Shown here one piece after another: positions 1 through 28,860 of a stretch of 32,000 nt of DNA; within the stretch, counting starts at the first letter, position 1; every line of letters starts with the position of its first letter. The stretch is taken from assembly GCA_016700375.1 (NCBI GenBank), contig CP065016.1:390001-422000 (forward strand). Reading direction: 5' to 3'. The notes below the pieces were generated by a model. It did not search any database. It saw nothing but the letters and a program-made list of their open reading frames with translations, and was not told the DNA's origin. Both the position numbers and the translations under genes were made by a program. This stretch comes from Candidatus Saccharimonadota bacterium (GTDB taxonomy: Bacteria > Patescibacteriota > Saccharimonadia > Saccharimonadales > UBA4665).

Positions 1-1
1 C

Positions 2-1660
2 AGCGAAGAATCCCGCCTTGCCGCCGATGTCAAAACCACCCAACCCATCATGATAGTAGTGGGCAACCCTCCATACTCAGTGAGTAGCAATAACAAAAGT
101 GAATGGATCCAAAATCTCATAAAAGACTACAAAAAGAATCTTAACGAGAAGAAAATAAACCTTGATGATGACTATATTAAATTCATCCGCTTCGCGGAAC
201 AGATGATTGAGAAAAATGGCTCGGGAATCGTTGCCATGATTACCAATAATAGCTACATCGATGGCATCACACATCGTAGAATGCGTAAACACTTGCTACA
301 AACATTCGATAAAATCTATATCTTGGATTTACATGGAAGTACTATGAAGAAAGAAAAAGCACCCGATGGGAGCAAAGACGAAAACGTCTTCTCAATCATG
401 CAGGGAGTTTCAATCGTTCTCATGGTCAAGATTGGAGCCAAACACGATTCAGCTATTGGTGAAGTCTACCATGCTGAACTTTTCGGCACTCGCAGAGACA
501 AGTTCATAATGTTAAGTCGAGATGAAATCGCATTTGAAAAACTAACCACTCATGAACCAAGCTACTTCTTTGTAAAAAAAGACTTGACCCTAAGTAGCGA
601 GTACGCTGGAGGTATCGGGCTCAATGAGTTGTTTATAGTCAGCAATTCTGGCATCAAGACTGATAGGGATAAATTATTTATCGATTTCGAACAAGATATT
701 CTGAGCAAACGTGTCGAAAAATTATTCGGCGGTGATTTGAACGAGGGATTTAGAACAGACTATAGAGTAGAAGACTCCAGTAGCTACAAACTTACCAGCA
801 TTTTAGAAAAAAACCGCTTCTCAGCTGAGCATATTAAGCTAGAAGAATACAGGCCTTTTGATTACAGATATATATACTATGATCGCTCTGTAATTAGTCG
901 CCCGGGTTATGCTGTAATGTCTCATCAGCAAGAAGACAATCCAATGCTAATCTCAACAAGGCAACTTAGTAGTTTTGATTATCAACATGCATTGGTGAGC
1001 ACCGACCTTACCGATATATGTTCCATCTCGTCACAGACAAAGGAAACTGGCTATGCGTTTCCACTATATACCTACGCTAAAAATGGCGAAAAAATTGAGA
1101 ATTACAACCCAATAAGACTTAGTGAACTACTTCGGTTATGCAGTAATAACGAAGTCTCGGAAGTGTCACATCAACCAGAAGACGTTTTTGACTATGTATA
1201 TGCTACCTTACACTCGCCAAGTTATCGCAAAAAATATAAAGAATTTCTTAAATCCGATTTTCCCAGAATCCCGATTCCAATCCAGAAAGAATTTGAACGA
1301 CTAACCCCACTTGGTAAACGGCTGCGTGAACTGCACTTAATGACATCTGGCGAATCGCATGAAGTTACAACCACTTATCCAGAAAGCTCAGAAGAGTGGC
1401 AAAATGAAGTAAATTTACCCTTATTTTCAAAAGATACTCGTGAGCCAAATGGCAATGGCAGAGTATACATTAATTCTCAGCAATATTTTGGCAATGTACC
1501 TGAAGCGGCATGGAATTTCTACATAGGTGGCTACCAGCCGGCGCAAAAGTGGCTCAAGGACCGCAAAGGCCGCAAACTCACTAGTAACGACATAACCCAC
1601 TACCAACGCATTATCACTATCCTCACCAAAACCCAAGAAATCATGCAGGAAATCGGCTAA
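2..1660 (+). CDS. N6-adenine DNA methyltransferase of the type IIG / type ISP-like restriction-modification family, C-terminal part (5' end outside window)
   Basis: The frame is open from position 2 to the window edge (SEESRLAADVKTTQPI precedes the listed Met), so the gene is truncated by the window. It has the catalytic NPPY motif (VVGNPPYS). The C-terminal segment HSPSYRKKYKEFLKSDFPRIPIP ... WNFYIGGYQPAQKWLKDRKGRKLT matches, from memory, the conserved C-terminal domain of type ISP/IIG enzymes. Stop TAA at 1658-1660. Confidence 0.85.
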   Translation, partial: SEESRLAADVKTTQPIMIVVGNPPYSVSSNNKSEWIQNLIKDYKKNLNEKKINLDDDYIKFIRFAEQMIEKNGSGIVAMITNNSYIDGITHRRMRKHLLQTFDKIYILDLHGSTMKKEKAPDGSKDENVFSIMQGVSIVLMVKIGAKHDSAIGEVYHAELFGTRRDKFIMLSRDEIAFEKLTTHEPSYFFVKKDLTLSSEYAGGIGLNELFIVSNSGIKTDRDKLFIDFEQDILSKRVEKLFGGDLNEGFRTDYRVEDSSSYKLTSILEKNRFSAEHIKLEEYRPFDYRYIYYDRSVISRPGYAVMSHQQEDNPMLISTRQLSSFDYQHALVSTDLTDICSISSQTKETGYAFPLYTYAKNGEKIENYNPIRLSELLRLCSNNEVSEVSHQPEDVFDYVYATLHSPSYRKKYKEFLKSDFPRIPIPIQKEFERLTPLGKRLRELHLMTSGESHEVTTTYPESSEEWQNEVNLPLFSKDTREPNGNGRVYINSQQYFGNVPEAAWNFYIGGYQPAQKWLKDRKGRKLTSNDITHYQRIITILTKTQEIMQEIG

Positions 1661-1678
1661 TTTTACAACACTGTCGTA

Positions 1679-1707
1679 TTGAAACACAATCCTACCTACT
1701 GTATGAT
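1679..1707 (+). promoter_or_regulatory. sigma70-type promoter candidate for the 1737-2993 cassette
   Basis: TTGAAA (1679-1684), 17-nt spacer, TATGAT (1702-1707). A GGGAG Shine-Dalgarno (1727-1731) lies 5 nt before ATG 1737. Confidence 0.6.
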
Positions 1708-1736
1708 AATCACATAAGATTACATAGGGAGTTATT

Positions 1737-2594
1737 ATGGCAGTACAAATTACGATCGACGGGGAAGGGTTGAGCTATACTTCAAATATAAATATTATTC
1801 AAGCCGCGAAAATTATTGGATTCCTTAATACAGAAGAGCCGCTTGGTGCGGCCGACAGCTACCAAAATACTCCGCACCAAGGAGCAACGAATTTTATCGA
1901 TCCACCCAAGAACAAAGTGGTCTCTTCGCCGCGGGAGGCGATTATACATGCCCGCGCAAGAACAAATGCCCAAAAAATTCTCGTCTTGGGAGCATATATA
2001 GTAGAAAGAGATGGTGCCGAAGAGTTTGCCTCGACTGAGCTGAAGAATCTTTTTATCAAAGCCGGTGAATCGGCCCCCCGCAATCTTTCAAGGGATCTGA
2101 AATATGCAATAAAATCTGGCTATATAACTGAGAGTATGTCTGGATCTGACATGTATATAGTAACGAACACGGGCTACAATGTCCTCGAAAACGGTTTTGA
2201 GGCCACCGAACACTCGTCAACCCCTAGTGCTAACGGAGGGCGTAAGAGTAGAAAAAGACGCAACCCAAAAATTGCACCGAAACCTGAATGGCTAGACTCG
2301 GTGGAAATTGACGACCATATGGAAGGCTACCCGACCTATCGGCAAATGAACACTAAGAGCGACAAGGCCCTGTGGATAGTGCAATGGGCTACAGCAAAAG
2401 GTCGCGAACGAGTTACGGCGGCAGACATAACAGCTGTCGCCGATGGGCTCGCAGATCATATTCAGCGTAATCAGATTACAGCTACCCTCTCGGGCCACGT
2501 CAGTAAAAGCAATGTATCAAAAACTGCGGATGGATACAAAATCTTATACTCTGGGAGCCGCTACCTAATAGGCTCTACAGGGACCAGAGAGTAG
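1737..2594 (+). CDS. hypothetical protein, two winged-helix-like modules joined by a basic linker
   Basis: 285-aa ORF with good SD and promoter. Two segments show a helix-turn-helix/wing-like pattern (approx. SPREAIIHARARTNAQKILVLGAYIVE...YIVTNTGYNVLENGF and KSDKALWIVQWATAKGRERVTAADITAVA...DGYKILYSGSRYL). They are separated by GGRKSRKRRNPKIAPKP. No family recognised by eye. Confidence 0.6.
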   Translation: MAVQITIDGEGLSYTSNINIIQAAKIIGFLNTEEPLGAADSYQNTPHQGATNFIDPPKNKVVSSPREAIIHARARTNAQKILVLGAYIVERDGAEEFASTELKNLFIKAGESAPRNLSRDLKYAIKSGYITESMSGSDMYIVTNTGYNVLENGFEATEHSSTPSANGGRKSRKRRNPKIAPKPEWLDSVEIDDHMEGYPTYRQMNTKSDKALWIVQWATAKGRERVTAADITAVADGLADHIQRNQITATLSGHVSKSNVSKTADGYKILYSGSRYLIGSTGTRE

Positions 2595-2603
2595 GCGACA
2601 AAC

Positions 2604-2993
2604 ATGGACCGTCTATCGACTAAAGATATCATTGCAAAGTACCGTGTTGCATATAAGCAGCTCAGACCTCTTGAGTCGGAAGCTATTGGCGACAAAGTTT
2701 ACTTCAATATGTACGGATTTAAGCATTTACTATTTAAGGGCAAGCATCGTCGAGAGACGAAAGCCATCCTGAATCGACTCGTACTAATCCCGCTTATTGT
2801 ACCCGTTATACGCAACTGTTCGGAAGAAGTTGAAATCCGCATACGCTGGGAAACGATAGATGGCAAGAAAATCCGCGTGACTTATTACGCCCTTGAAGCG
2901 CATGTCGGCAAAGATAGCGTACGCGTGCGAGTCGTCACCCGGAAAGTTGGCGATAAAGGTAAGCATTATTTTCAAAGTATAATGAAATATTAA
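2604..2993 (+). CDS. hypothetical small basic protein (possible toxin/nuclease partner of 1737-2594; function unknown)
   Basis: 129-aa ORF starting 9 nt after the upstream stop, so it looks operonic. It is Lys/Arg/His-rich (FKHLLFKGKHRRETK, RKVGDKGKHYF) and is followed immediately by a terminator hairpin. The resemblance to small RNase-type toxin domains is only an impression. Confidence 0.55.
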   Translation: MDRLSTKDIIAKYRVAYKQLRPLESEAIGDKVYFNMYGFKHLLFKGKHRRETKAILNRLVLIPLIVPVIRNCSEEVEIRIRWETIDGKKIRVTYYALEAHVGKDSVRVRVVTRKVGDKGKHYFQSIMKY

Positions 2994-3020
2994 AAACACC
3001 TTTGTGCTAAAGGTGTTTTT
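2993..3020 (+). terminator. intrinsic terminator hairpin
   Basis: AAAACACCTTT (2993-3003) pairs perfectly with AAAGGTGTTTT (3009-3019), with loop GTGCT. The 3' arm runs into a T-tract. It lies directly after stop 2991-2993. Confidence 0.7.
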
Positions 3021-3163
3021 AATGTGTTCGCTTCCAGACTTAGGAGATTTAACCTTGGTCGGTTCTAGGGCAAGCCCCACGAACACAATCCTATAATAGC
3101 ACGATATGTTAAGTGTTGCAAGTATTGTATAGTTATTGTGTGATAAAATATGTGTAAAAAAAT

Positions 3164-3192
3164 TTGACATTCATCTGTTATTTCAGTAGCAT
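3164..3192 (+). promoter_or_regulatory. sigma70-type promoter candidate for the 3223-6253 cassette
   Basis: TTGACA (3164-3169), 17-nt spacer, TAGCAT (3187-3192). AAAGGA SD at 3211-3216. Confidence 0.5.
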
Positions 3193-3222
3193 GAAAATAG
3201 AAAATAGCAGAAAGGAATGGCG

Positions 3223-3951
3223 ATGAGCAGGCTTGGAAGTAACATCAAGGCAGCGCGACTCGCGCGGGGGTTTACGCAGGCGCAGGTGGCAGAGGCGATT
3301 GGGCTGACTCGGCCGACGTATGCGCTGGTAGAAGTAAATAAACGCGATATTACGCTTGGGCAAGCCGAAACATTGGCTGCCATGCTGCGAGTGAGCGTTG
3401 ACGAACTGCGCGGTGCAGCCGATGGAGTTGTAGCTCAGTTAAATCCTGAAGCAAGCATGGAAAAATACAAGCAGATGATTCTTAACGCTCTGGAAACCGG
3501 AGCGGATAGGGATGGTAAAATCACCAAAACAAAGCTTGCCAAGCTAGTATATCTCGCCGATTTCACCTGGTTTTACAACCACCTTGTACCGATGTCGGGC
3601 ATGAGCTACCGCCGCCTGCCACAGGGTCCGGTGCCAGATGTATACTTTCGCGCTATAGACGAGCTGATAGAAGGCGGCGCGCTCAATATGGAAGAACGGG
3701 GCAGGGCTTTCATGCTCAGTATGGCCGATACAGGGAGCGCGCCAAGTAATCAACTCAAGCCAGAAGAAAAACAAATGCTTCAGCGAATCGGCAAGGCCTG
3801 GCAAGGTAAACAAACCCAGGAAATAGTAAACTTTACGCACGAACAATTACCGTGGCAAATCTGCCGGGAGGGCGAGGTAATTCCATACGGGCTCATCACA
3901 CAGGAAGACCCAAAAAAGGTGTATGGAAATGCCCGAGTCGCTGAACTATAG
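3223..3951 (+). CDS. XRE-family HTH fused to a Panacea/DUF4065 (SocA-like) antitoxin-type domain
   Basis: The N-terminus LGSNIKAARLARGFTQAQVAEAIGLTRPTYALVEVNKRDITLGQAETLAAML is a typical Cro/C1 HTH. The C-terminal KLAKLVYLADFTWFYNHLVPMSGMSYRRLPQGPVPDVY fits the DUF4065 signature as I remember it. ATG 3223 has better SD spacing than the listed ATG 3217, which is in the same frame. Confidence 0.8.
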   Translation: MSRLGSNIKAARLARGFTQAQVAEAIGLTRPTYALVEVNKRDITLGQAETLAAMLRVSVDELRGAADGVVAQLNPEASMEKYKQMILNALETGADRDGKITKTKLAKLVYLADFTWFYNHLVPMSGMSYRRLPQGPVPDVYFRAIDELIEGGALNMEERGRAFMLSMADTGSAPSNQLKPEEKQMLQRIGKAWQGKQTQEIVNFTHEQLPWQICREGEVIPYGLITQEDPKKVYGNARVAEL

Positions 3952-4333
3952 CTGCAGCTGGCGGGAATATGCCGAGCGTCATTATGCAAAAGTATTTTCC
4001 AAAAAGTACAAAGCTGGCTGGCTACAAACACGAGACACTATTGATGAGGTGTGCAAGCGCATAGATAGTATGCTGGCTTATGCACGCGCAGACCTCATCG
4101 CCACACACAAGCAGTACAAAATAGTGAAGCTTGATTTTGCTATCGCTGGCACAAAGATTTCCGCAAAGGCTTCAGGAAACCGCTGTATACTCTTCGTGGA
4201 CGAAGCTGTGCGTCACGTAGAAATATTGCTCGCATACTCTAAAAATGATATCGGCCCGCCAAATGAAACCGCAAAATGGCAGCTATTGATAAAAAAGCAG
4301 TATCCAGAAATAATGAAGCTAATCCCGTTATGA
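3923..4333 (+). CDS. hypothetical protein, candidate toxin partner of the Panacea-domain gene (RelE/ParE-like C-terminal pattern)
   Basis: 136-aa ORF overlapping the upstream gene by 29 nt (23 nt if ATG 3929 is used, which has better spacing from AGGTG). The C-terminal YKIVKLDFAI...GNRCILFVDEAVRHVEILLAYSKND resembles the beta-strand/basic-residue pattern of RelE/ParE-fold toxins. This is a pattern-level call only. Confidence 0.5.
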   Translation: MEMPESLNYSCSWREYAERHYAKVFSKKYKAGWLQTRDTIDEVCKRIDSMLAYARADLIATHKQYKIVKLDFAIAGTKISAKASGNRCILFVDEAVRHVEILLAYSKNDIGPPNETAKWQLLIKKQYPEIMKLIPL

Positions 4334-5178
4334 AAGAGATCGTCAAAATGAAGCATGATATGGATAAAATCGCGGTATTTCGTAGGAAAGGAATTCGACG
4401 GCAGTTGCATAATGGTGAGTGGTGGTTTGCTGTGGCGGATGTTGTGGCGGTTTTAACTAATTCGGCCGATGCGGGTGCGTATTGGCGCAAACTAAAACAG
4501 AGGCTGGTAAGTGAAGGGTCTGAGCAAACCGTGACAAATTGTCACGGTTTGAAAATGACAGCAGCCGACGGTAAACAGCGCCGAACCGACGCTATGAAAA
4601 CAGATGACCTCTTCCGCCTCATCCAATCGATCCCGAGTAAAAAAGCAGAGCCATTCAAGCGGTGGTTGGCGCGTGTAGGGTATGAGCGTGCGCAAGAGAT
4701 TGAGAATCCGGAACTTGCCCAGAAACGCATGAAGGCACTGTACAAAGCAAAGGGCTACGACGAAGCGTGGATCGAGCGGCGGGTCCGCGGCATAGCCATA
4801 CGACAGGAACTCACCGATGAACGGGACAAACGTGGCGTGCAGAATGAGCGCGACTATGCCATCCTGACGGCAGAAATATCCAAAGCCACCTTTGGTATTA
4901 CTCCTAGCCAGTACAAGAAACTGAAGGGACTGCAGCGAGAAAACCTGCGATATCACATGAATGACCTCGAACTAATTTTTAGCCAGCTCGGCGAAGCCGC
5001 AACCACCGAAATAGCCCGAGCTGACGATGCGCAAGGTATGAACGAAAACATGAGCACCGCCAACCGAGGCGGAGCGGTGGCCGGAAACGCCCGCAAGCAG
5101 CTAGAAACCGAAACCGGCCGACGTGTTATAAGCAAAAATAACTTTCTACAAAATGATAAACGCAAAAAACTACACTAA
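4330..5178 (+). CDS. Bro-N domain / DinD-like (DNA-damage-inducible protein D-like) protein
   Basis: FRRKGIRRQLHNGEWWFAVADVVAVLT ... SEGSEQTVTNCHGLKMTAADGKQRRTDAM ... LIQSIPSKKAEPFKRWLARVGYERAQEIENPE matches a widespread Bro-N/DinD-like family from memory. The preferred start is ATG 4330, which overlaps the upstream stop as ATGA (4330-4333). The listed ORF starts at 4276 in the same frame. Confidence 0.8.
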   Translation: MKEIVKMKHDMDKIAVFRRKGIRRQLHNGEWWFAVADVVAVLTNSADAGAYWRKLKQRLVSEGSEQTVTNCHGLKMTAADGKQRRTDAMKTDDLFRLIQSIPSKKAEPFKRWLARVGYERAQEIENPELAQKRMKALYKAKGYDEAWIERRVRGIAIRQELTDERDKRGVQNERDYAILTAEISKATFGITPSQYKKLKGLQRENLRYHMNDLELIFSQLGEAATTEIARADDAQGMNENMSTANRGGAVAGNARKQLETETGRRVISKNNFLQNDKRKKLH

Positions 5179-5581
5179 ACCTGCAAGTACAAAGCGCTGG
5201 ACGTTGTACGTTTTACTTCTAGAAGAGGGCAAGTACTACGTGGGCATAACGTCACAAACCCCAGAAAAGCGGTTTCAGGAACATCTGCATGCTCGAAAAA
5301 GCTACTGGACAGAAAAATACCCTCCGATAAAAATCATCCAGACCGTTGACCTAGGAGGGCTAGACCGGGAAGCAGCCCTAGCTTACGAAAATCGTGTCGT
5401 CCGGAAGTACATTACGGAGAAAGGAATTAACAATGTTCGAGGCGGCGATATAACCACGCCAAATGTATTAGTCGCACGTTTCAACCGCATTTTTCCCAAG
5501 GATGACTGGGAGGCAATAGTAGTGATTTCATTCCTCATCCTTATCATTCTATATCAAACAGTAGTACTGTATATTCGGTAG
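5153..5581 (+). CDS. GIY-YIG domain protein with C-terminal transmembrane helix
   Basis: WTLYVLLLEEGKYYVGITSQTPEKRFQEH ... YENRVVRKY ... NVRGG fits the GIY-YIG core. The C-terminus WEAIVVISFLILIILYQTVVLYI is a hydrophobic helix. It overlaps the upstream gene by 26 nt. Confidence 0.75.
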   Translation: MINAKNYTKPASTKRWTLYVLLLEEGKYYVGITSQTPEKRFQEHLHARKSYWTEKYPPIKIIQTVDLGGLDREAALAYENRVVRKYITEKGINNVRGGDITTPNVLVARFNRIFPKDDWEAIVVISFLILIILYQTVVLYIR

Positions 5582-5614
5582 CGAACTTTCTCAGGCTACC
5601 GTATACTAGTCATT

Positions 5615-6253
5615 ATGCAAAAAGGCTTCGTGTACATACTGACCAATCCGAGCTACAAAGATAACATCATCAAAATTGGGTTTACAACCAATCTCAAGGA
5701 CCGGCTGGCGCAGCTTGACAAAACGGGGGTGCCAACACCTTTCGACCCGTACATGACGGTACAAACCGCAAAGTATAAAGAGCTAGAAAAAGTTATTCAC
5801 CACGAACTCGATAAGCTCACTGATTTCAGAACTCGAGAAAACCGTGAATTCTTTGAAATTGACCCAGTAGACGCCGCGGACCTGCTCAAAAACTTGGCAC
5901 GGCTGCTCGACGATGCCGAAATAGTCGAGTATGGCAATCTCAGCAGCGTAGAAGAAAAGAGCGAAGCAACTATAGCACAACAGGGTAACAGGACAACATT
6001 CAAAATGCTCGGGGTGCCCGTGGGAAGTAAATTGGTGGCAACCAACAAAAATATCCCGGACGTGACCGTATTAGATGAAATAAATCAGGTGCGGCTGCCG
6101 GACGGTAGTATAAAATCCATATCAAGGGCCGTGATAGACGCTGTAGGTGGGCACCGGAATGGGTTCCAGGTCTATAAATTCAACGGTAAAATCCTCTCAA
6201 ATATTCGAAAATCGTTCGACCAGAACTATCTACCCAAGAGTACTCGCTCTTAA
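5615..6253 (+). CDS. T5orf172 / GIY-YIG-like (MUG113-type) domain protein
   Basis: GFVYILTNPSYKDNIIKIGFTTNLKDRLAQL ... VIHHELDKL...RENREFFEI is the typical T5orf172 pattern. It has a ~100-aa C-terminal extension of unknown function. Confidence 0.75.
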   Translation: MQKGFVYILTNPSYKDNIIKIGFTTNLKDRLAQLDKTGVPTPFDPYMTVQTAKYKELEKVIHHELDKLTDFRTRENREFFEIDPVDAADLLKNLARLLDDAEIVEYGNLSSVEEKSEATIAQQGNRTTFKMLGVPVGSKLVATNKNIPDVTVLDEINQVRLPDGSIKSISRAVIDAVGGHRNGFQVYKFNGKILSNIRKSFDQNYLPKSTRS

Positions 6254-6507
6254 TATCTGACTATAAAAGATTCTCTGGACCAAATCTGATTGTATTCTAA
6301 GCGGATTAATGTTATGCTTCGGGTTACTAGAAGGCTGCGAAAAAGGGTTTTGTAGGTTTACAGATCAGGTTCTAGAAAGATTTAACAAGTTATGTTCGAT
6401 GCAAGGCGCAGCTAATCCTTTCTTTGTAAAGATTACCTTCAGCGACAGAATTAATCTCGGCATCCACTTACGTGCATGACGAGAAAAGAAAGGGTTATCC
6501 ATACTTA

Positions 6508-6771
6508 ATGGCAACCAAACTATTTGTCGGCTCACTTCCATGGGCAGTCGACGACCAACAACTAAAAGACCTCTTCAGCGAATTCGGTGAAGTGTCTTAC
6601 AGCAAGGTCATCATAGACCGCGACACCAACCGCTCAAAGGGCTTTGGTTTCGTCGAATTCGAAGATGATGCTGCTGCTAAGGCCGCTATCGCCAAACTTG
6701 ACGGTAGCGAAATGAATGGCCGCAATATCGTAGTCAACGAAGCTCGCCCACGCGAAGACAACCGTCGCTAA
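6508..6771 (+). CDS. RRM-type RNA-binding protein
   Basis: MATKLFVGSLPW (RNP2) and KGFGFVEF (RNP1) motifs. The listed ORF begins at GTG 6472, but ATG 6508 gives the canonical N-terminus. Confidence 0.9.
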   Translation: MATKLFVGSLPWAVDDQQLKDLFSEFGEVSYSKVIIDRDTNRSKGFGFVEFEDDAAAKAAIAKLDGSEMNGRNIVVNEARPREDNRR

Positions 6772-10500: not shown

Positions 10501-11673
10501 ATGAATATACCCTTTGTTGATTTTCTTATTGTATTTCTTGGCATTGGCGCGCTGCTACGAGGCTACCAAATCGGCTTCTTGCGCCAATTTATTTCGACAG
10601 TGGCGTTCATAGTAGGGCTGTTTCCTGGCTCGTGGCTGTCTGCGTTCGCCATGGAGCACGTAAGCGGCCCTTCAAAACCACTCGCTGGATTAGCCATACT
10701 GCTTACGGTATGTTTTACACTTATGACTGTCGGCGAGCTGCTTGCTGTCCGCCTCAAGTTGGCCGTGCAAAGCCATGCCGTGCAGCGCATAGACAATGCC
10801 ATTGGCGCTGCAATGTCAGTCGTTACGCTCTTGCTGGGGCTTTGGCTTGCAAGCGCTCTTTTTGCACTCGCACCACCCAGTAGTGTGCAGACCCAGTTAA
10901 AAAGTTCTCACATACTTGGAGTGCTAAACGGAGAACTGCCCCCCGCATCTTACGTACTCAAAAGCCTAAACACAATCATAGACCCCAACCAATTCCCAGA
11001 GGTTTTCGCTGGCAGGGAACCATCTCCTGACGCCCGTCATACCTTGCCAAACCCAGATGAATTTACAGCCATGCTCCGCAGCATTGAACCTTCTGTCCTG
11101 AAGGTTGAGGGACTCGGCTGCGGCGGAATTGTCGACGGCAGTGGTTTTGTGTTTGCGCGCGAACTTGTTGCCACCAATGCCCATGTTGTCGCAGGGGTTA
11201 GCAGCCCAAAGGTGCGAACAGGGAACGACGCCTTCAACACTACGGTCGTCGCATTTGACCCTGCCAATGACATTGCTGTCTTACGAGTACCGGGGTTAAA
11301 TCGTCCAGCGCTCACCATTAACCGCATGAATCCCGCCACCGGCTCGGCAGCATTCGCACTAGGCTATCCTGGCGGTGGTGAATATCAGGTAAGCCCGGCC
11401 GTTGTGCTTGACCGGTTTGAAGCACTCGGAAAAGACATATACGGCAAGAGTCGCACTACCCGCGAAGTCTACAGCCTGCAAACTACCATTGTGCGCGGCA
11501 ATTCGGGCGGACCTGTTGTCGCCAGCGACGGCAGCGTGCTTGGCGTTGTGTTCGCTACCTCCACCACGTACAATAACATCGGCTACGCACTCACTATGGA
11601 ACAAGTCCAGGAGCTGCTACGAGGTGCGCAGGACAAGCAAGCCGCCGTTAATACCGGAAAATGCAGCGAATAA
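10501..11673 (+). CDS. CvpA-like membrane domain fused to trypsin-like serine protease (MarP-like)
   Basis: Four TM helices at the N-terminus (FVDFLIVFLGIGALLRGYQIGFL). Catalytic triad context TNAHVV, NDIAVLRV, GNSGGPVV. Confidence 0.85.
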   Translation: MNIPFVDFLIVFLGIGALLRGYQIGFLRQFISTVAFIVGLFPGSWLSAFAMEHVSGPSKPLAGLAILLTVCFTLMTVGELLAVRLKLAVQSHAVQRIDNAIGAAMSVVTLLLGLWLASALFALAPPSSVQTQLKSSHILGVLNGELPPASYVLKSLNTIIDPNQFPEVFAGREPSPDARHTLPNPDEFTAMLRSIEPSVLKVEGLGCGGIVDGSGFVFARELVATNAHVVAGVSSPKVRTGNDAFNTTVVAFDPANDIAVLRVPGLNRPALTINRMNPATGSAAFALGYPGGGEYQVSPAVVLDRFEALGKDIYGKSRTTREVYSLQTTIVRGNSGGPVVASDGSVLGVVFATSTTYNNIGYALTMEQVQELLRGAQDKQAAVNTGKCSE

Positions 11674-11690
11674 AGAATGAGGTATGAGAC

Positions 11691-12413
11691 ATGAGACGAG
11701 AGACAAAAGATGGCATCAAAGGAAAGAGGGCAAAGGGCAGAGGGCAAAGTCCATCCCAGGTGAAAACCGCCTCTGTTAATAGCGCGTCCCAGGTAAAAAG
11801 CCAGTCGCACCCACAGCACCTCAACTGGCTTGAACGTCATGTGCCGACACTGCTTATTGGCAGTGGTGCCCTTGGGCTTCTGGCTGCGTTTATACTGGCA
11901 CTCGAAGAATTTCATCACCTGAAAAACCCTGGCGCTCCACTCAACTGCGACCTCAACCCGATAATCAGCTGCGGCCCCGCTATGGATGTGTGGCAAGGTC
12001 ATGCACTCCTGGGCATACCAAACCAATTTCTCGGCATCATTACCTTCACCGTTATGCTCACCATGGGCGTTGCGCTGCTTGCCGGCGCCCGGTTCAAGCG
12101 CTGGTTTTGGCTTGGGCTACAAGCTGGAATGTTCGCGGGACTAGTTTTTGTACACTGGTTTATTTACCAAAGTATATGGGTGCTCCAGCATCTGTGCCCG
12201 TACTGCATGGTGACGTGGGTCGCGACCATTGTTGGGTTTTGGTACATATTTCTCTACGGGCTGCGCGCTGAACATTTTCGCTTGCGCGGTCGGTGGAACA
12301 AAGCCGTCTTGTTCGTCCAAAAACACCACGCCGACATACTGGCCTTTTGGTTCCTTGTTATCATTGCGCTCATCCTCAACCATTTCTGGTACTACTGGCA
12401 AACCCTGTTGTAG
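11691..12413 (+). CDS. vitamin K epoxide reductase (VKOR) family protein
   Basis: Loop cysteines NCDLNPIISCGP, active-site CPYC, and four or five TM helices. It has a low-complexity basic N-terminal extension, so the start is uncertain. Confidence 0.85.
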   Translation: MRRETKDGIKGKRAKGRGQSPSQVKTASVNSASQVKSQSHPQHLNWLERHVPTLLIGSGALGLLAAFILALEEFHHLKNPGAPLNCDLNPIISCGPAMDVWQGHALLGIPNQFLGIITFTVMLTMGVALLAGARFKRWFWLGLQAGMFAGLVFVHWFIYQSIWVLQHLCPYCMVTWVATIVGFWYIFLYGLRAEHFRLRGRWNKAVLFVQKHHADILAFWFLVIIALILNHFWYYWQTLL

Positions 12414-12778
12414 GAGTGATGGTAGGGGATTTTCGAGACTCAATGTACAAGGTTCAGAAATTTTCAAGGCTCAAGGTTTCAAACAATCCACAAACAACGA
12501 TTGACGGGATTGGCGAGTTAGATGGTTGACACTAGACAGTGGACATTAAACGTTGGTGCGGCCGCAGGCCGCTAGGAATCATCCCGCCCACTGGCGGGAT
12601 ACAGCTAGAACGAGCATGTGTAGTCACCCGGCTGTCATGTTGTTTGGCTTTGCAACTACCGACAGGCGGCAAAACTTGTTAGAACGGAAGGAATGACTGC
12701 TGGTGGCAGTCTGAGTGGAGTGAGTTGTTTTGCCGGTTGCGAAACTGACAACCTGACACCGAGAGACGAAGCCTTGCT

Positions 12779-12802
12779 CTGGCTTTTTTGGCCAGCTTTT
12801 TT
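12779..12802 (+). terminator. terminator-like hairpin with T-tract
   Basis: CTGGC-TTTTTTG-GCCAG followed by CTTTTTT. A second hairpin, GCCACC-AAAAAA-GGTGGT, follows at 12803-12820. Confidence 0.4.
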
Positions 12803-12957
12803 GCCACCAAAAAAGGTGGTCGGTTTGGCAGTCCGAGAACTGCCATGTCGGTGAGGGGGCATGGCGAAGCTGTAAAGGTTGGTGAATGCATAGACATCAG
12901 TGGAGGGGTATGGATGCTGAAACTAGTTCAGCATGACGGGGCTGAAAAAGCACATGG

Positions 12958-12977
12958 ATTCCCGCTTACGCGGGAAT
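12958..12977. repeat. REP-like palindromic element (ATTCCCGC-TTAC-GCGGGAAT)
   Basis: 8-bp perfect stem with a 4-nt loop. One frame reads WIPAYAGMT, a peptide string I recognise as a recurrent spurious translation of intergenic palindromes in many genomes. Confidence 0.6.
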
Positions 12978-13097
12978 GACAAGGCTTTTATTAGTGGCAA
13001 GGCATGAATTACCGTTGGAGTTTACCCTCGACTTGTACCCTGGGGCGGGGAGGGCAAACGTGAAGAGAATATCCTTTACTTCGTTCGGGGTGACGCA

Positions 13098-13355
13098 CTA
13101 CATGTGGTTGCGTTCGACGTGGTGTTTATTTATACCGTTGGTCACATTCGTAAACCCCATTTGCCGCAGGTAGGGTATGGTTGCATTACTGCGACTACCG
13201 CTTAAACAGTACACCACAAGCTCGGTATCTCGCGGCAAGTCAGCCAGTTCCGGCGGGTTACTAAGCAGGCGGGAGGGCGGTATATTTATGGCACCATCAA
13301 CATGCCCCATTTTGTATTCAAACGGCTCACGCACATCTATTATTACTTTGCTCAT
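13098..13355 (-). CDS. single-domain rhodanese-like sulfurtransferase
   Basis: IIDVREPFEYKMGHVDGAINIP and the active-site loop VVYCLSGSRS. Confidence 0.9.
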   Translation of the reverse strand: MSKVIIDVREPFEYKMGHVDGAINIPPSRLLSNPPELADLPRDTELVVYCLSGSRSNATIPYLRQMGFTNVTNGINKHHVERNHM

Positions 13356-13389
13356 ACTTTCTCCTTTTTTTGGCTGCTACTTCGTAGTT

Positions 13390-13410
13390 TAATGTAAATC
13401 GTTTACATTA
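13390..13410. promoter_or_regulatory. palindromic operator candidate (Fur-family box-like) in a divergent promoter
   Basis: TAATGTAAA-TCG-TTTACATTA is a perfect 9-bp inverted repeat. It lies between the divergent rhodanese (13355) and Fur-family (13439) starts. Confidence 0.5.
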
Positions 13411-13438
13411 GCAAGTGCAAGGTGTATAGTAAAATGAG

Positions 13439-13849
13439 ATGAACATAACAGAGGCGAAAACACAATCCCAGATGAGACAGAGCAAATACTGCACCGCAAT
13501 ACTCGCCGAATTAGCACGCCTTGGGCACGCTACAAATGCGGAACTACTGCGCGCCATGAGACACTACTACCCAAACGTCAGCGCAACAACAGTGCACCGC
13601 GCAACCACGCGGCTGGCCTCTCGGGGCGAAATCGGCTTTGCGCCGTCAGATACATCTGGTGCCATGCGCTACGATGCTCAGGTGACCGCCCACGATCATT
13701 TCCAGTGTACACAGTGCGGGAGACTCCAAGATATCGACATCGTAGAGCGTATACGACCCATGCTACTAGCGGCTGCGTCTGACTGTATGCCCACAGGACG
13801 TCTCACAATCAGCGGTTCATGTAAAAAATGTAAGGGAGGGAAGGTATGA
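13439..13849 (+). CDS. Fur-family metalloregulator
   Basis: Winged-helix N-terminus (ATVHRATTRLASRGEI), HDHFQCTQCG and C-terminal CKKC zinc-site cysteines. Confidence 0.85.
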   Translation: MNITEAKTQSQMRQSKYCTAILAELARLGHATNAELLRAMRHYYPNVSATTVHRATTRLASRGEIGFAPSDTSGAMRYDAQVTAHDHFQCTQCGRLQDIDIVERIRPMLLAAASDCMPTGRLTISGSCKKCKGGKV

Positions 13850-22645: not shown

Positions 22646-23715
22646 CACGAGTTTCGCACTTTCACCCATTCAACCGGGCAGCCAGCGCAAGCTGGATGCC
22701 TGGTTTTATGACCTCCCAATCTTGTTGGTATAGCGTCGTTTGGTCAATTAGCCTTCTCTTATGTTTTCGTACCCAGGTAAGCAAAGCTAACCCAATGTGG
22801 TTTCTTTGGGCTCGGCTAAGATTGGCCTGACAGCGGGATAAGCCACAGGTTTGTTTGAGCTCTCGATGCAGTACCTCGACACTCCAACGGCGCTCGAAGT
22901 ATTTCTTGACTTGTTCGCGGGTGAGGTCAGTACGACTTGTACCAACATAATCCGTGCGGCCGTTACTGGCCTCAAACCGGAAGACTCTGATCCACCCATA
23001 GCCTTTCAGATATGTCACCAAGCCTGTATCTGGTATATCTAACTCTCTGAGCTGGATATGTGGCTTACCGACTAACCGGTTGCTCCTCAGCCCCATGACC
23101 CAGTCCCAGCCATGAGAGCGAACTGCCTTAAGGTTTTTTAGAGAGCCGTACCAGCTATCCGCAACAACCATCTCCGGGCGTAGCCCTCTCTGTCTTGTGC
23201 TACTCAGCATATCCTGGAAGTGATCATTCTTAGTCTTGCCGTCTTCTGGCGGGTTCCAGATGCGGTAGTCCATAGGAATGTAGTGTTCTGTATCTACTTG
23301 CCACAACGCATTTACAACGCCAATCCCTCTGGTGATGTCATGCTTACTTCCCGCATGCTGCCAGTTCACAAGCTCCATCTTGCCGCTTCGGCTTTTGTCG
23401 ATGACGACATCATCGAAGACCAAAATGCCAGGAGTGGCGCGAACTTCCTTAGCGGCAGCTTGCCACAGGTCTTTGGGCTGTATCTTTTCAGATGCTAGCC
23501 AACGGGAGACGCTGTCGTGAGAGAGCATGGCATTGTCTGGGGCTACTTCGCTCAAGCTGAGCGCAGAATACCGTGAGGAGGTGACCTCCAGGAATGAGCA
23601 GTACAGCTCACGAGAACATTTTGAACGAGACATGTTTATTTTCCTTGTTTACGAAAAAGCATGACTGACGTCATGCTTCTAGGCTAGCAAAGAATTGGGG
23701 AGTGCGAAACTCGTG
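22646..23715 (-). mobile_element. complete IS element (IS701/IS4-superfamily-like), 1070 bp
   Basis: Perfect 15-bp terminal inverted repeats: CACGAGTTTCGCACT (22646-22660) and AGTGCGAAACTCGTG (23701-23715). A single DDE transposase ORF lies inside. The flanking pentamers TAATG (22641-22645) and TGATG (23716-23720) could be an imperfect target duplication. Confidence 0.85.
22662..23633 (-). CDS. DDE transposase (IS701/IS4-like)
   Basis: ILVFDDVVIDKSRSGKMELV (first D region), MVVADSWYGS (second D), RWSVEVLHRELKQTCGL (E/K region). Confidence 0.85.
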   Translation of the reverse strand: MSRSKCSRELYCSFLEVTSSRYSALSLSEVAPDNAMLSHDSVSRWLASEKIQPKDLWQAAAKEVRATPGILVFDDVVIDKSRSGKMELVNWQHAGSKHDITRGIGVVNALWQVDTEHYIPMDYRIWNPPEDGKTKNDHFQDMLSSTRQRGLRPEMVVADSWYGSLKNLKAVRSHGWDWVMGLRSNRLVGKPHIQLRELDIPDTGLVTYLKGYGWIRVFRFEASNGRTDYVGTSRTDLTREQVKKYFERRWSVEVLHRELKQTCGLSRCQANLSRAQRNHIGLALLTWVRKHKRRLIDQTTLYQQDWEVIKPGIQLALAARLNG

Positions 23716-28407: not shown

Positions 28408-28450
28408 CACAAACCCCAACGAAACAATAACGAACATCAATTCGCAAGGA

Positions 28451-28492
28451 ACAAGATTTTGGCGAAGCCTCGCCTGCAGCGGGGCGCTGTCT
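28451..28492. repeat. direct repeat copy R1 (ACAAGATTTTGGCGAAGCCTCGCCTGCAGCGGGGCGCTGTCT)
   Basis: Identical to 28640-28684 except for a 3-nt AAG insertion in the other copy. It contains two small hairpins, GGCGA-AGCC-TCGCC and CAGCG-GGG-CGCTG. Confidence 0.85.
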
Positions 28493-28497
28493 GCGCG

Positions 28498-28521
28498 TGA
28501 ACAATAGATATGGTGCCGCAG
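28498..28521. repeat. 24-nt inverted-repeat arm (left)
   Basis: TGAACAATAGATATGGTGCCGCAG is the reverse complement of 28837-28860 (CTGCGGCAGCATATCTATTTTTCA), with 2 mismatches. Confidence 0.85.
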
Positions 28522-28627
28522 GCCGGACTTGACCTACCTAAGGCAGGCCCAGAACTTTCAGACTGCAAGCTAAGCCTACAATCTGAAAGATTCACTTGCG
28601 ACCCGCCGCTGGCGGGCCTCACGGCAC
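28511..28627 (-). ncRNA. cloverleaf-like, tRNA-related structured element of unknown identity (not a canonical tRNA)
   Basis: Minus-strand fold by hand. Closing stem GTGCCG/CGGCAC plus GGCC/GGCC. Arm CCCGCC-AGC-GGCGGG. Arm CTTTCAGA-(19 nt)-TCTGAAAG. Arm CCTGCC-TTA-GGTAGG. The 3' end ..TCAAGTCCGGCCTGCGGCACCA resembles a tRNA T-loop/acceptor/CCA. No valid T-stem or 7-nt anticodon loop could be drawn. Confidence 0.4.
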
Positions 28628-28639
28628 GTCCTTACGAAC

Positions 28640-28684
28640 ACAAGATTTTGGCGAAGAAGCCTCGCCTGCAGCGGGGCGCTGTCT
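28640..28684. repeat. direct repeat copy R2
   Basis: ACAAGATTTTGGCGAAGAAGCCTCGCCTGCAGCGGGGCGCTGTCT. See R1. Confidence 0.85.
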
Positions 28685-28700
28685 AGCGTTCGGATATTTT

Positions 28701-28785
28701 TGGTGGGCAAGGAGGGAATCGAACCCTCAATCCGTAAGGAACACGATTTTGAGTCGTGCGCGTATACCAATTCCGCCACTTGCCC
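28701..28785 (-). tRNA. tRNA-Leu (CAA), CCA encoded
   Basis: Manual fold of the reverse complement: acceptor GGGCAAG/CTTGCCC, D-region GGCGGAATTGGTATACGCGC, anticodon stem ACGAC../..with loop CTCAAAA (anticodon CAA), a long variable arm, and T-arm GAGGG-TTCGATT-CCCTC followed by A-CCA. Confidence 0.9.
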
Positions 28786-28836
28786 CCCAAAAATATCTGA
28801 ATTTCGCCCAAGCGAAATGTCTACCAATTCCGTTCG

Positions 28837-28860
28837 CTGCGGCAGCATATCTATTTTTCA
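28837..28860. repeat. 24-nt inverted-repeat arm (right)
   Basis: See 28498-28521. Confidence 0.85.

Follow-up and report, generated by a model that had tools for sequence, protein, structure and literature searches.

What occupies the biggest gap between genes in a bacterium with almost no DNA to spare? Genomes of Saccharibacteria and other members of the candidate phyla radiation (CPR) comprise about 1 Mb, hardly any of it spare, and the non-coding RNAs known from them are very few. The DNA analysed here, called the window, is a stretch of 32,000 nucleotides from a Candidatus Saccharimonadota bacterium (contig CP065016.1, positions 390,001 to 422,000). Its biggest gap, 684 bp at positions 12414-13097, is bounded by convergent genes: the open reading frame (ORF) of a VKOR-family protein ends at 12413 and a rhodanese ORF on the minus strand ends at 13098. 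A preliminary description gave exactly these boundaries and considered the gap to be saturated with hairpins, either as one or more structured RNA genes or as a nest of palindromic repeats. We compared the gap with other Saccharibacteria loci, to which the L-numbers in this text refer, and found that it holds a conserved, strand-specific folded RNA in a modular, recombination-prone locus. The plus strand of the gap is rich in G and poor in C, with a GC skew of up to +0.235. That most gaps of the window are shorter than 100 bp, as also stated before, holds only roughly, several gaps have 200-400 bp.

Evidence for a conserved, strand-specific fold

The folding energy differed along the gap. For the whole gap, comparison with 20 shuffled sequences per strand gave z-scores of -2.97 (plus strand) and -3.42 (minus strand). 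With 200 shuffles each, the segment 12554-12825 on the plus strand reached a z-score of -3.68, only one shuffled sequence folding as well, while 12826-13097 had -1.71 and 12414-12553 had +1.39, being less structured than its shuffles. The comparison with shuffled controls, proposed in the preliminary description, hence singled out a central segment; the first 140 nt are unstructured, and the saturation with hairpins does not extend throughout the gap.

The decisive evidence is covariation rather than folding energy. In nhmmer comparisons with the relatives, the region from about 12529 to 12817 alone was shared, every time on the plus strand. An RNAalifold consensus of the first four sequences contained 79 pairs, 22 of them compensatory. 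The main test used a MAFFT alignment of 12 sequences, extending from the hairpin P1 to the hairpin S described below, on which the RNAalifold consensus was predicted and the pairs were then counted. Among 61 pairs, 94.7% of the cells were paired and 26 pairs had changed on both sides. The covariation score was 0.371 versus 0.143 in column shuffles, none of 500 shuffles being as high, and pairing dropped to 26-48% in controls with the 3' partners moved by one to three columns. Prediction and counting on one and the same alignment carry some bias in favour of the structure; the slid and the shuffled controls argue for a robust result, and so does an independent single-sequence minimum free energy (MFE) fold, which reproduced the consensus fold for 12554-12825.

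Three observations identify the folded molecule as the plus strand. The pair at alignment columns 131-198 is G-U in 11 of the 12 sequences, the P2 hairpin of L006 contains G-U pairs, and a covariance model of the central rod (R1) scored 156-190 bits on the plus strand and at most 19 bits on the minus strand. Loop nucleotides were better conserved than stems and included invariant unpaired positions, and the rod fold was kept across lineages with VKOR proteins of just 56% identity. The maintenance of the fold together with loops more conserved than stems indicates selection on a folded RNA, not on any stable hairpin. The comparison with relatives suggested in the preliminary description thus revealed a block that has been kept whole, with compensatory base changes, in more than 15 loci of Saccharibacteria. 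The proposal of a structured non-coding RNA applies to 12554 to about 12825 and to several hairpins downstream.

Anatomy of the RNA and its modules

All features of this section are on the plus strand. The gap opens with an unstructured, C-poor leader (12414-12557), as seen from the fold z-score and a C content of 15.7%. The first hairpin, P1 (GCGGCC-GNA-GGCCGC, 12558-12572), is nearly invariant in 11 of 12 homologues, was found solely ahead of the RNA bodies (A, A' and B, see below) and likely forms the 5' end of the RNA. The following hairpin P2, ATCCCGCC-CACT-GGCGGGAT (12581-12600), varies among the relatives in its stem (CGUCGC/GCGACG, AUCGC/GCGAU, and AUUCGCC/GGUGGAU with G-U pairs), the loop being mostly GNNA. 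A single-stranded conserved linker, ACAGCUAG (12601-12608), separates P2 from the rod. Its CUAG core is present in 10 of 12 homologues as well as in the B-type RNA of L046; L043 has UUAG and L036 is without it.

The core of the RNA is a long rod of about 170 nt (12612-12779), supported by covariation, covariance model and MFE fold. It consists of a closing stem GAGC/GCUC, a purine-rich internal loop, a helix of about 30 bp, a 9-bp helix, a second internal loop and an apical hairpin. The 30-bp helix contains a side hairpin of only 2 bp with a GNNA loop (CC-GACA-GG, 12659-12666) that is invariant as CC-GNNA-GG. The conserved internal loop comprises UUGUUAGA and GAGUU (12676-12683 and 12722-12726). 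Both internal loops of the rod contain conserved sequence rich in purines. The apical hairpin (GACTGC-TGGTG-GCAGTC, 12696-12712) covaries.

At the end of the rod, a terminator scan detected the hairpin CTGGC-T6G-GCCAG followed by CTTTTTT (12779-12802), a candidate for the 3' end of the RNA. Nearly all homologues carry a U-tract 3-6 nt past the rod. This hairpin (12779-12795) competes with the hairpin T, which is present in the MFE fold and in which a U-tract pairs with an A-tract (CCAGCUUUUUUG-CCAC-CAAAAAAGGUGG, 12792-12819). The design of T recurs with other sequence in L003, L009, L011, L028, L029, L043 and L061. An intrinsic terminator of the VKOR or the rhodanese gene alone was rejected as explanation: there is one such site, 12779-12802, but about 240 nt upstream of it covary, and in L040 the RNA unit is also present after an independent terminator.

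Further downstream, the hairpin S (TGGCAGT-CCGAGA-ACTGCCA, 12826-12845) is shared without change by L028, L040 and L043, and its SCGRRA loop is found on covarying stems in L009, L029, L046, L003 and L043. In 870 kb, 16 hairpins of this type (a stem with the SCGRRA loop) were detected, 12 of them directly 3' of an RNA unit on the same strand, and these 12 represent six different stem sequences. The modules X1 (GG-[AUGCUGAA-ACUAG-UUCAGCAU]-GACGG, 12912-12939, hairpin at 12914-12934) and X2 (GG-[AUUCCCGC-UUAC-GCGGGAAU]-GACAAGG, 12956-12984, hairpin at 12958-12977) follow. X1 is conserved in L029 and L046; X2 was aligned in L029, L039 and L002, with 91.7% identity over 36 nt in L002. Their common format GGA-stem-loop-stem-UGAC(A/G)G recurs in L002, L003, L028, L040 and L048 with covarying stems (AUCUC/GAGAU, AUCUU/AAGAU, AUCCU/AGGAU, AUUCU/AGAAU). 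The 3' half of the gap (12851-13097) travels with the rhodanese gene in other strains, its last 110 nt or so (12985-13097) being kept in near-identical strains only.

All nine stem-loops listed in the preliminary description were found in the gap sequence, and six or seven of them are conserved modules. The first, third, sixth, eighth and ninth, which are P2, the apical hairpin, S and the hairpins of X1 and X2, are kept in relatives. The fourth (CTGGC-T6G-GCCAG) and the fifth read the conserved U-tract/A-tract region 12779-12820 in alternative ways. Two were not supported: both segments of the second (CCGGCTGTC/GACAGGCGG) pair with different partners in the consensus fold, and the seventh (GCCATG/CATGGC) overlaps S and is missing from the closest homologue L039.

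Search of known families

Rfam 15 was searched with 4227 models, including 6S RNA, RNase P, SRP, tmRNA, OLE, raiA, ROOL, GOLLD, HEARO, Y RNA, T-box and ribozymes. At gathering score, only the two tRNAs of the window were reported. At E<10 the gap yielded matches at chance level only, FtrB with 17.6 bits (gathering score 66) and a fragment of the long non-coding RNA SMAD5-AS1_2 with 10.4 bits (gathering score 50); eight related loci had no match at E<1. ARAGORN found no tmRNA in the window, only tRNA-Ser and tRNA-Leu, both outside the gap. The earlier impression, gained by eye, that tmRNA, RNase P, SRP and 6S RNA do not fit agrees with these searches. In the literature on non-coding RNAs of Saccharibacteria, TM7 and Patescibacteria, only the unrelated lysM-TM7 motif and TIGR-Tas were met, and no matching RNA. 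Four patterns (A-long core, short core, S and B core) were without match in the viral contigs, so within that collection phages do not carry the family. The RNA represents a new, undescribed family absent from Rfam 15 and the literature searched, and the family is restricted to Saccharibacteria (order Saccharimonadales).

Several other identities were tried and rejected. For a group II intron, some copies begin with GUGCG, but the motif is not general and an Rfam intron match is absent. Y RNA had no covariance model match, and short likenesses to GGUCCGA and GUAGUGAGUU of human Y RNAs were treated as chance. The loop UGUUUGA/GAGUU does not fit the K-turn consensus in register. A Fur-controlled small RNA of the RyhB type was dismissed: the palindrome AATGTAAATCGTTTACATT occurs solely at 13391-13409, before the Fur-family gene, and no second site was found in the window at up to three mismatches.

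Family members and interchangeable bodies

Further copies were obtained with R1, by one metagenome pattern scan and from contigs encoding VKOR homologues. The VKOR protein search yielded 18 loci, from Saccharibacteria, Saccharimonadales or Patescibacteria metagenome-assembled genomes, the closest with 96% protein identity. Look-ups of the exact VKOR and protease sequences of the window returned no recorded protein. The pattern scan gave 20 matches; eight were chance matches in other organisms without covariance model match, and about 12 were true matches of the A-long pattern. The long form (A) is complete or nearly so in the window, L003, L004, L006, L028, L029, L036, L039, L040, L042, L043, L044, L048, L061/L062 and L069, and truncated or situated at contig ends in L031, L035/L037 and L063. 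A short form (A'), in which the apical stem is absent, was present in L009, L011 and as second copy in L028. R2, the covariance model of the short form, cross-detected the long forms and added no locus in 435 kb. Both models together, applied to about 435 kb, found only one locus per stretch of 10-30 kb.

In L002, L046, L039, L006 and L045, the same P1-P2-CUAG and T-S-X modules enclose a different and larger body, B. Common to A and B is an internal-loop core, UGUUUGA ... GAGGAGUU, that surrounds a variable apical hairpin, and some copies of B (L002, L045) have an extra domain M. Degenerate relics were seen in L031, L049 and L006a. Searched with mismatches in about 300 kb (loci and window), P1 and S were never found away from the RNA unit. 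The block is a unit and not a set of dispersed hairpins. The alternative of a palindromic repeat nest, offered in the preliminary description, is right only in that the locus is modular and its hairpins recur with other bodies; independent dispersal was not observed.

The domain M has a counterpart elsewhere in the window, in a second RNA-like intergenic region on the minus strand (28440-28860) around tRNA-Leu(CAA) (28701-28785). A module of about 160 nt (M, about 28534-28623) has a perfect 29-nt direct repeat on either side (28464-28492 and 28656-28684) and is homologous to the optional insertion domain of the B RNAs of L002 and L045 with 73% column identity; each of the three copies has a central hairpin of different sequence. 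Like a processing stem, an inverted repeat of 24 nt (28498-28521 and 28837-28860, 92%) encloses tRNA-Leu and M, and the tRNA leader and trailer pair with each other (28689-28711 and 28779-28801). Rfam reported for this region only a permuted tmRNA at chance level (13.9 bits, E 1.2).

Genomic contexts and strain variation

In the window, the gap is flanked on the left by the VKOR-family gene (11691-12413, plus strand) and on the right by a single-domain rhodanese gene (13098-13355, minus strand). The genes of this neighbourhood form a cluster for metal and redox functions, made up of VKOR, rhodanese, a Fur-family regulator, a second rhodanese, DUF2202, Nramp and a MacB-type ABC exporter. The RNA follows VKOR in the window, L003, L004, L048, L061 and L069, follows Nramp in L006, L009 and L011, follows rplL and the terminator of that gene in L040, follows yhhQ in L039 and is divergent from ymdB in L046. 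Most RNA loci have no co-directional downstream gene. The RNA is not tied to any one neighbouring gene. Beside these contexts, a leader of about 170 nt was noticed before the yhhQ-like queuosine-precursor transporter gene of L039 (1020-1200, minus strand); a riboswitch of the preQ1 type might be expected there, and Rfam gave no match at E<1.

The VKOR-rhodanese site is a hot spot of gene-content variation. Its contents differ among strains whose flanks are 94-96% identical, the A RNA being that of the window. L046 is 94.8% identical to the window over 12851-13839 and has on its left side a B-type RNA and a YmdB gene, the breakpoint lying right after S; L047 is 96.3% identical from 12881. The gap of L001 is occupied by an unrelated 311-aa ORF (4767-5702), the insert looking A+T-rich by eye, and that of L045 by an unrelated 284-aa ORF (512-1366) plus a fragment of B; neither ORF had a Pfam or PADLOC match. 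In other lineages, the site is nearly empty (L005, L051) or holds a degenerate relic (L049). In one lineage, seven of ten contigs break off about 100 nt past VKOR. Shared modules may turn the loci into recombination hot spots, and recombination via these modules would explain that close strains differ at this site, having A, B or else an unrelated ORF.

Upstream leader and promoter-like boxes

The end of the leader (12516-12557, about 42 nt) is a degenerate array with a period of 7 nt. The identity at lag 7 is 0.45 in the window versus 0.6-0.75 in L003, L006, L028 and L040. Many relatives have 5-13 tandem 7-nt units directly upstream of P1, with units differing by lineage (GAGUCAU, UAGGUUU, UAGACGG, UUGGAGG, CUUAGAG) and a phased (U/G)AG triplet kept; the NAG-N4 phase was significant in eight relatives (p<0.01). 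In about 330 kb of Saccharibacteria DNA, ten segments were found at lag 7, none at lags 5, 6 and 8, and five at lag 9.

Repeats of 7 nt were also observed at the 5' end of VKOR and in its Lys/Gly-rich N-terminal coding region, as (GGCAAAG)n: in the window at 11668-11710, in L002 at 4004-4051, in L010 at 4012-4071 and in L004 at 4732-4813. These suggest either a lineage-specific habit of slippage or a shared regulatory motif. In a lineage without heptads, two direct repeats of about 40 nt (GAAGCGGAAACUACGGAAG...AACAAAUCC) lie between VKOR and P1 (L061 6732-6900, L069 2675-2840).

Such arrays resemble known protein-binding RNAs. Single-stranded arrays of purine triplets with fixed spacing beside hairpins are a feature of CsrB/RsmZ and of HutP and TRAP sites. 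The triplets of HutP sites are spaced by 4 nt, and the (U/G)AG-N4 period of the relatives equals this design of XAG plus 4 nt. HutP binds XAG-rich sites (PMC2425495). Unlike in CsrB/RsmZ, GGA motifs are not general in the RNA family and are absent from L040. In contrast to HutP and TRAP sites, the arrays are lineage-specific, absent in several members and followed by a large structured RNA instead of a terminator controlling a downstream operon.

Promoter-like boxes precede the RNA in some loci. L029 has an extended -10-like sequence (TGATATATA) 5 nt upstream of P1, and in L029, L011 and L061 the RNA is preceded, at a distance of 5-16 nt, by A/T-rich -10-like boxes. The window offers a weak TTGACA (12526-12531) followed after 15 nt by TAAACG. 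These boxes are suggestive of an independent transcription of the RNA.

Proposed function and alternative explanations

We favour, with moderate confidence, a stand-alone non-coding RNA gene on the plus strand from about 12558 to about 12800 (240-270 nt, with predicted ends), situated in a recombination-prone hot spot and acting in trans by binding or sequestering protein. The RNA would be transcribed on its own from promoters with the -10-like boxes and would end at the U-tract or after T. In trans, it may act as protein-binding scaffold or as sequestering RNA. This role is proposed because the best-conserved positions are unpaired loop nucleotides and GNRA-type loops, and because no long single-stranded seed is apparent and the gene is not linked to one neighbour. 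The conserved loop nucleotides and the GNRA-type loops may make protein or tertiary contacts, and where present, the triplet array could offer a platform to a protein, multimeric or multi-copy, that binds single-stranded RNA. The invariant loop nucleotides, the unstructured C-poor leader, the NAG-N4 arrays and a nearby, conserved RRM gene are suggestive of protein binding. This gene (6472-6771, plus strand) lies 5.6 kb upstream and codes for a single-RRM protein of about 90 aa (RRM_1, E 5e-25), a candidate for a single-strand RNA-binding partner. It is syntenic in L048, L049, L051 and L063, about 5-6 kb upstream of VKOR.

The closest likeness in kind is to OLE, raiA and the ROOL/GOLLD class: stand-alone, clade-restricted RNAs of a few hundred nucleotides with many helices, GNRA-type loops, conserved internal loops and strong covariation, the function of which is likewise not deducible from neighbour genes. 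The RNA of the window differs from them by the lack of an Rfam 15 match, its smaller size (a core of about 240 nt), its occurrence in Saccharibacteria, its variation between strains, and its interchangeable bodies (long, short or B), which share their end modules.

Some observations speak against a stand-alone, protein-binding RNA. The closest relative, L001, with 94.6% identical flanks, has no RNA at the site, so the RNA is either dispensable here or located elsewhere in that genome. The T hairpin of L061 is without a following U-run on either strand. The array of the window has NAG in 2 of 8 units (p 0.76; KRG 4 of 8, p 0.03), and L029, L061, L009 and L011 lack an array, which is thus not essential to the core function. 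Since repeats of period 7 are also part of the VKOR coding sequence in L002 and L010, the arrays may be a mutational habit of these genomes instead of a binding site. The RRM gene is present with or without the RNA nearby. The heptad arrays are therefore treated as an accessory or mutational feature and not as part of the RNA core.

An alternative that we regard as possible, though rather unlikely, is a mosaic intergenic repeat of the pneumococcal BOX or enterobacterial BIME/REP kind. Its modules would be selfish or structural repeats of DNA or RNA, which would serve in cis as terminator, 3'-end stabiliser or insulator between convergent genes and as substrate for recombination without producing a discrete trans-acting RNA. 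BOX, BIME and REP elements are modular intergenic hairpin units, often between convergent genes, strain-variable and prone to recombination, and the locus shares this behaviour: bodies are interchangeable and modules optional, the position is in every case intergenic, mostly at the 3' ends of genes, T has the look of a two-way U/A-tract hairpin where genes converge, presence and absence vary at strain level, a rearrangement breakpoint falls exactly after S, the break of contigs shortly after VKOR fits, and relics exist in L031, L049 and L006a. However, the copy number is very low in the DNA scanned, with one locus in 32 kb, no further ones in about 435 kb of relatives and about 12 true A-long matches in the whole metagenome collection, and the modules never stand alone. 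The body is much longer than such repeats, its covariation is deep, its loops are more conserved than its stems, and the rod fold persists at 56% VKOR identity. In L040, moreover, the upstream gene already has a separate terminator at its end.

The exchange of bodies leads to a more tentative and still less probable idea. The bodies A, A' and B, with or without M, held between a 5' handle (P1-P2-CUAG) and a 3' handle (T-S-X) and often preceded by a phased (U/G)AG array, could be parts of an undescribed ribonucleoprotein (RNP) system, in which a dedicated protein would bind or process the handles and the variable body would specify the function. If this were true, the swapping of bodies between strains would point to a strain-variable determinant, for instance for host interaction, immunity or incompatibility, and not to a housekeeping RNA.

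It is improbable that the RNA belongs to, or is left over from, a mobile or RNA-guided system, such as a non-autonomous element like IS200/IS605, a guide like the IS110 bridge RNA or a TIGR stem-loop unit, with end hairpins recognised by a recombinase or nuclease encoded elsewhere. Conserved ends with a variable middle, the varied insertion contexts and the hot-spot behaviour would suit such an origin, the rod with its extended helices and two internal loops is superficially like a bridge RNA, and TIGR systems have been reported in CPR bacteria (PMC12045711). A TIGR array consists of an edge repeat, a 9-nt spacer, a loop repeat and another 9-nt spacer (about 36 nt), repeated 5-15 times (PMC12045711). 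Neither a 36-nt dual-repeat periodicity nor alternating 8-12-nt repeats with 9-nt spacers were found in the RNA, and, contrary to guide spacers, it has conserved internal loops and variable stems. A Pfam search of 35 ORFs revealed in the 32-kb window no gene for Nop/Tas, IS110, TnpA/TnpB or reverse transcriptase; the flanks are VKOR and rhodanese, with neither the recombinase nor the TnpB gene that would be expected beside an IS110 bridge RNA or an IS200/IS605 omega RNA, and the sole transposase is of the DDE type and 10 kb away (22662-23633). Filled and empty sites, read side by side, disclosed no terminal inverted repeats or target duplications, and the family is absent from the viral contigs. 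TIGR-Tas, bridge RNA, omega RNA and retron were rejected as identity of the RNA on the lack of a cognate gene in the window and the wrong repeat architecture.

Just as improbable, if not more so, is a highly divergent 6S-like RNA, the rod of which would mimic open promoter DNA and sequester the RNA polymerase holoenzyme. 6S RNAs can have paralogues within one genome and are often missed by sequence models. The RNA resembles them in the length of its rod (about 176-180 nt), in an internal bubble with 12-13 nt on one strand opposite 9-10 nt, and in possible paralogues. No 6S model matched even at E<10, however, and the helix past the bubble has only 13 bp in the long forms and is absent in the short ones. 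The extra 5' hairpins and the three-way junction are foreign to 6S RNA, and stable inheritance of the locus at one position is lacking; presence in one and absence in another of two strains with about 95% identity would be unusual for a housekeeping RNA.

An mRNA of a small protein or type I toxin, or a neutral spacer with chance hairpins, is extremely unlikely: mechanical ORFs of 46-72 aa do exist in the gap and stop-free stretches of 60-89 codons on the minus strand of several homologues, but, in line with the preliminary finding of no convincing ORF, none on either strand (at most 72 aa) is kept across homologues, all frames of the RNA unit of L048 are interrupted with 45 codons as longest open stretch, the helix substitutions are compensatory and not codon-like, and conservation with covariation in more than 15 loci excludes chance hairpins.

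Other features of the window

A perfect 8-3-8 palindrome, AATGTAAA-TCG-TTTACATT (13391-13409, plus strand), overlaps the predicted promoter of the Fur-family gene (TTTACA-17-TATAGT, 13402-13430) and is probably the autoregulatory operator of this regulator. The first part of the window (1-6300) resembles a mobile or defence-like island, with the C-terminal part of a Type ISP restriction-modification protein, an HTH-SocA/Panacea antitoxin-like protein, Bro-N, a GIY-YIG nuclease and T5orf172.

Implications

The RNA locus accounts for the repeated breaks of metagenome assemblies after VKOR. In genomes as small as those of Saccharibacteria, the expense of 0.3-0.7 kb of non-coding DNA per locus, together with a fold kept by compensatory changes, is a strong hint of function. 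The family is supported by covariation and is ready for curation, structure probing and the hunt for binding partners. Culture and genetic manipulation of Saccharibacteria, which are tiny parasitic bacteria, have become feasible only recently. Their modular RNA design and its swapping between strains raise the testable question whether these RNAs may be part of an RNP system tied to the epibiotic lifestyle.

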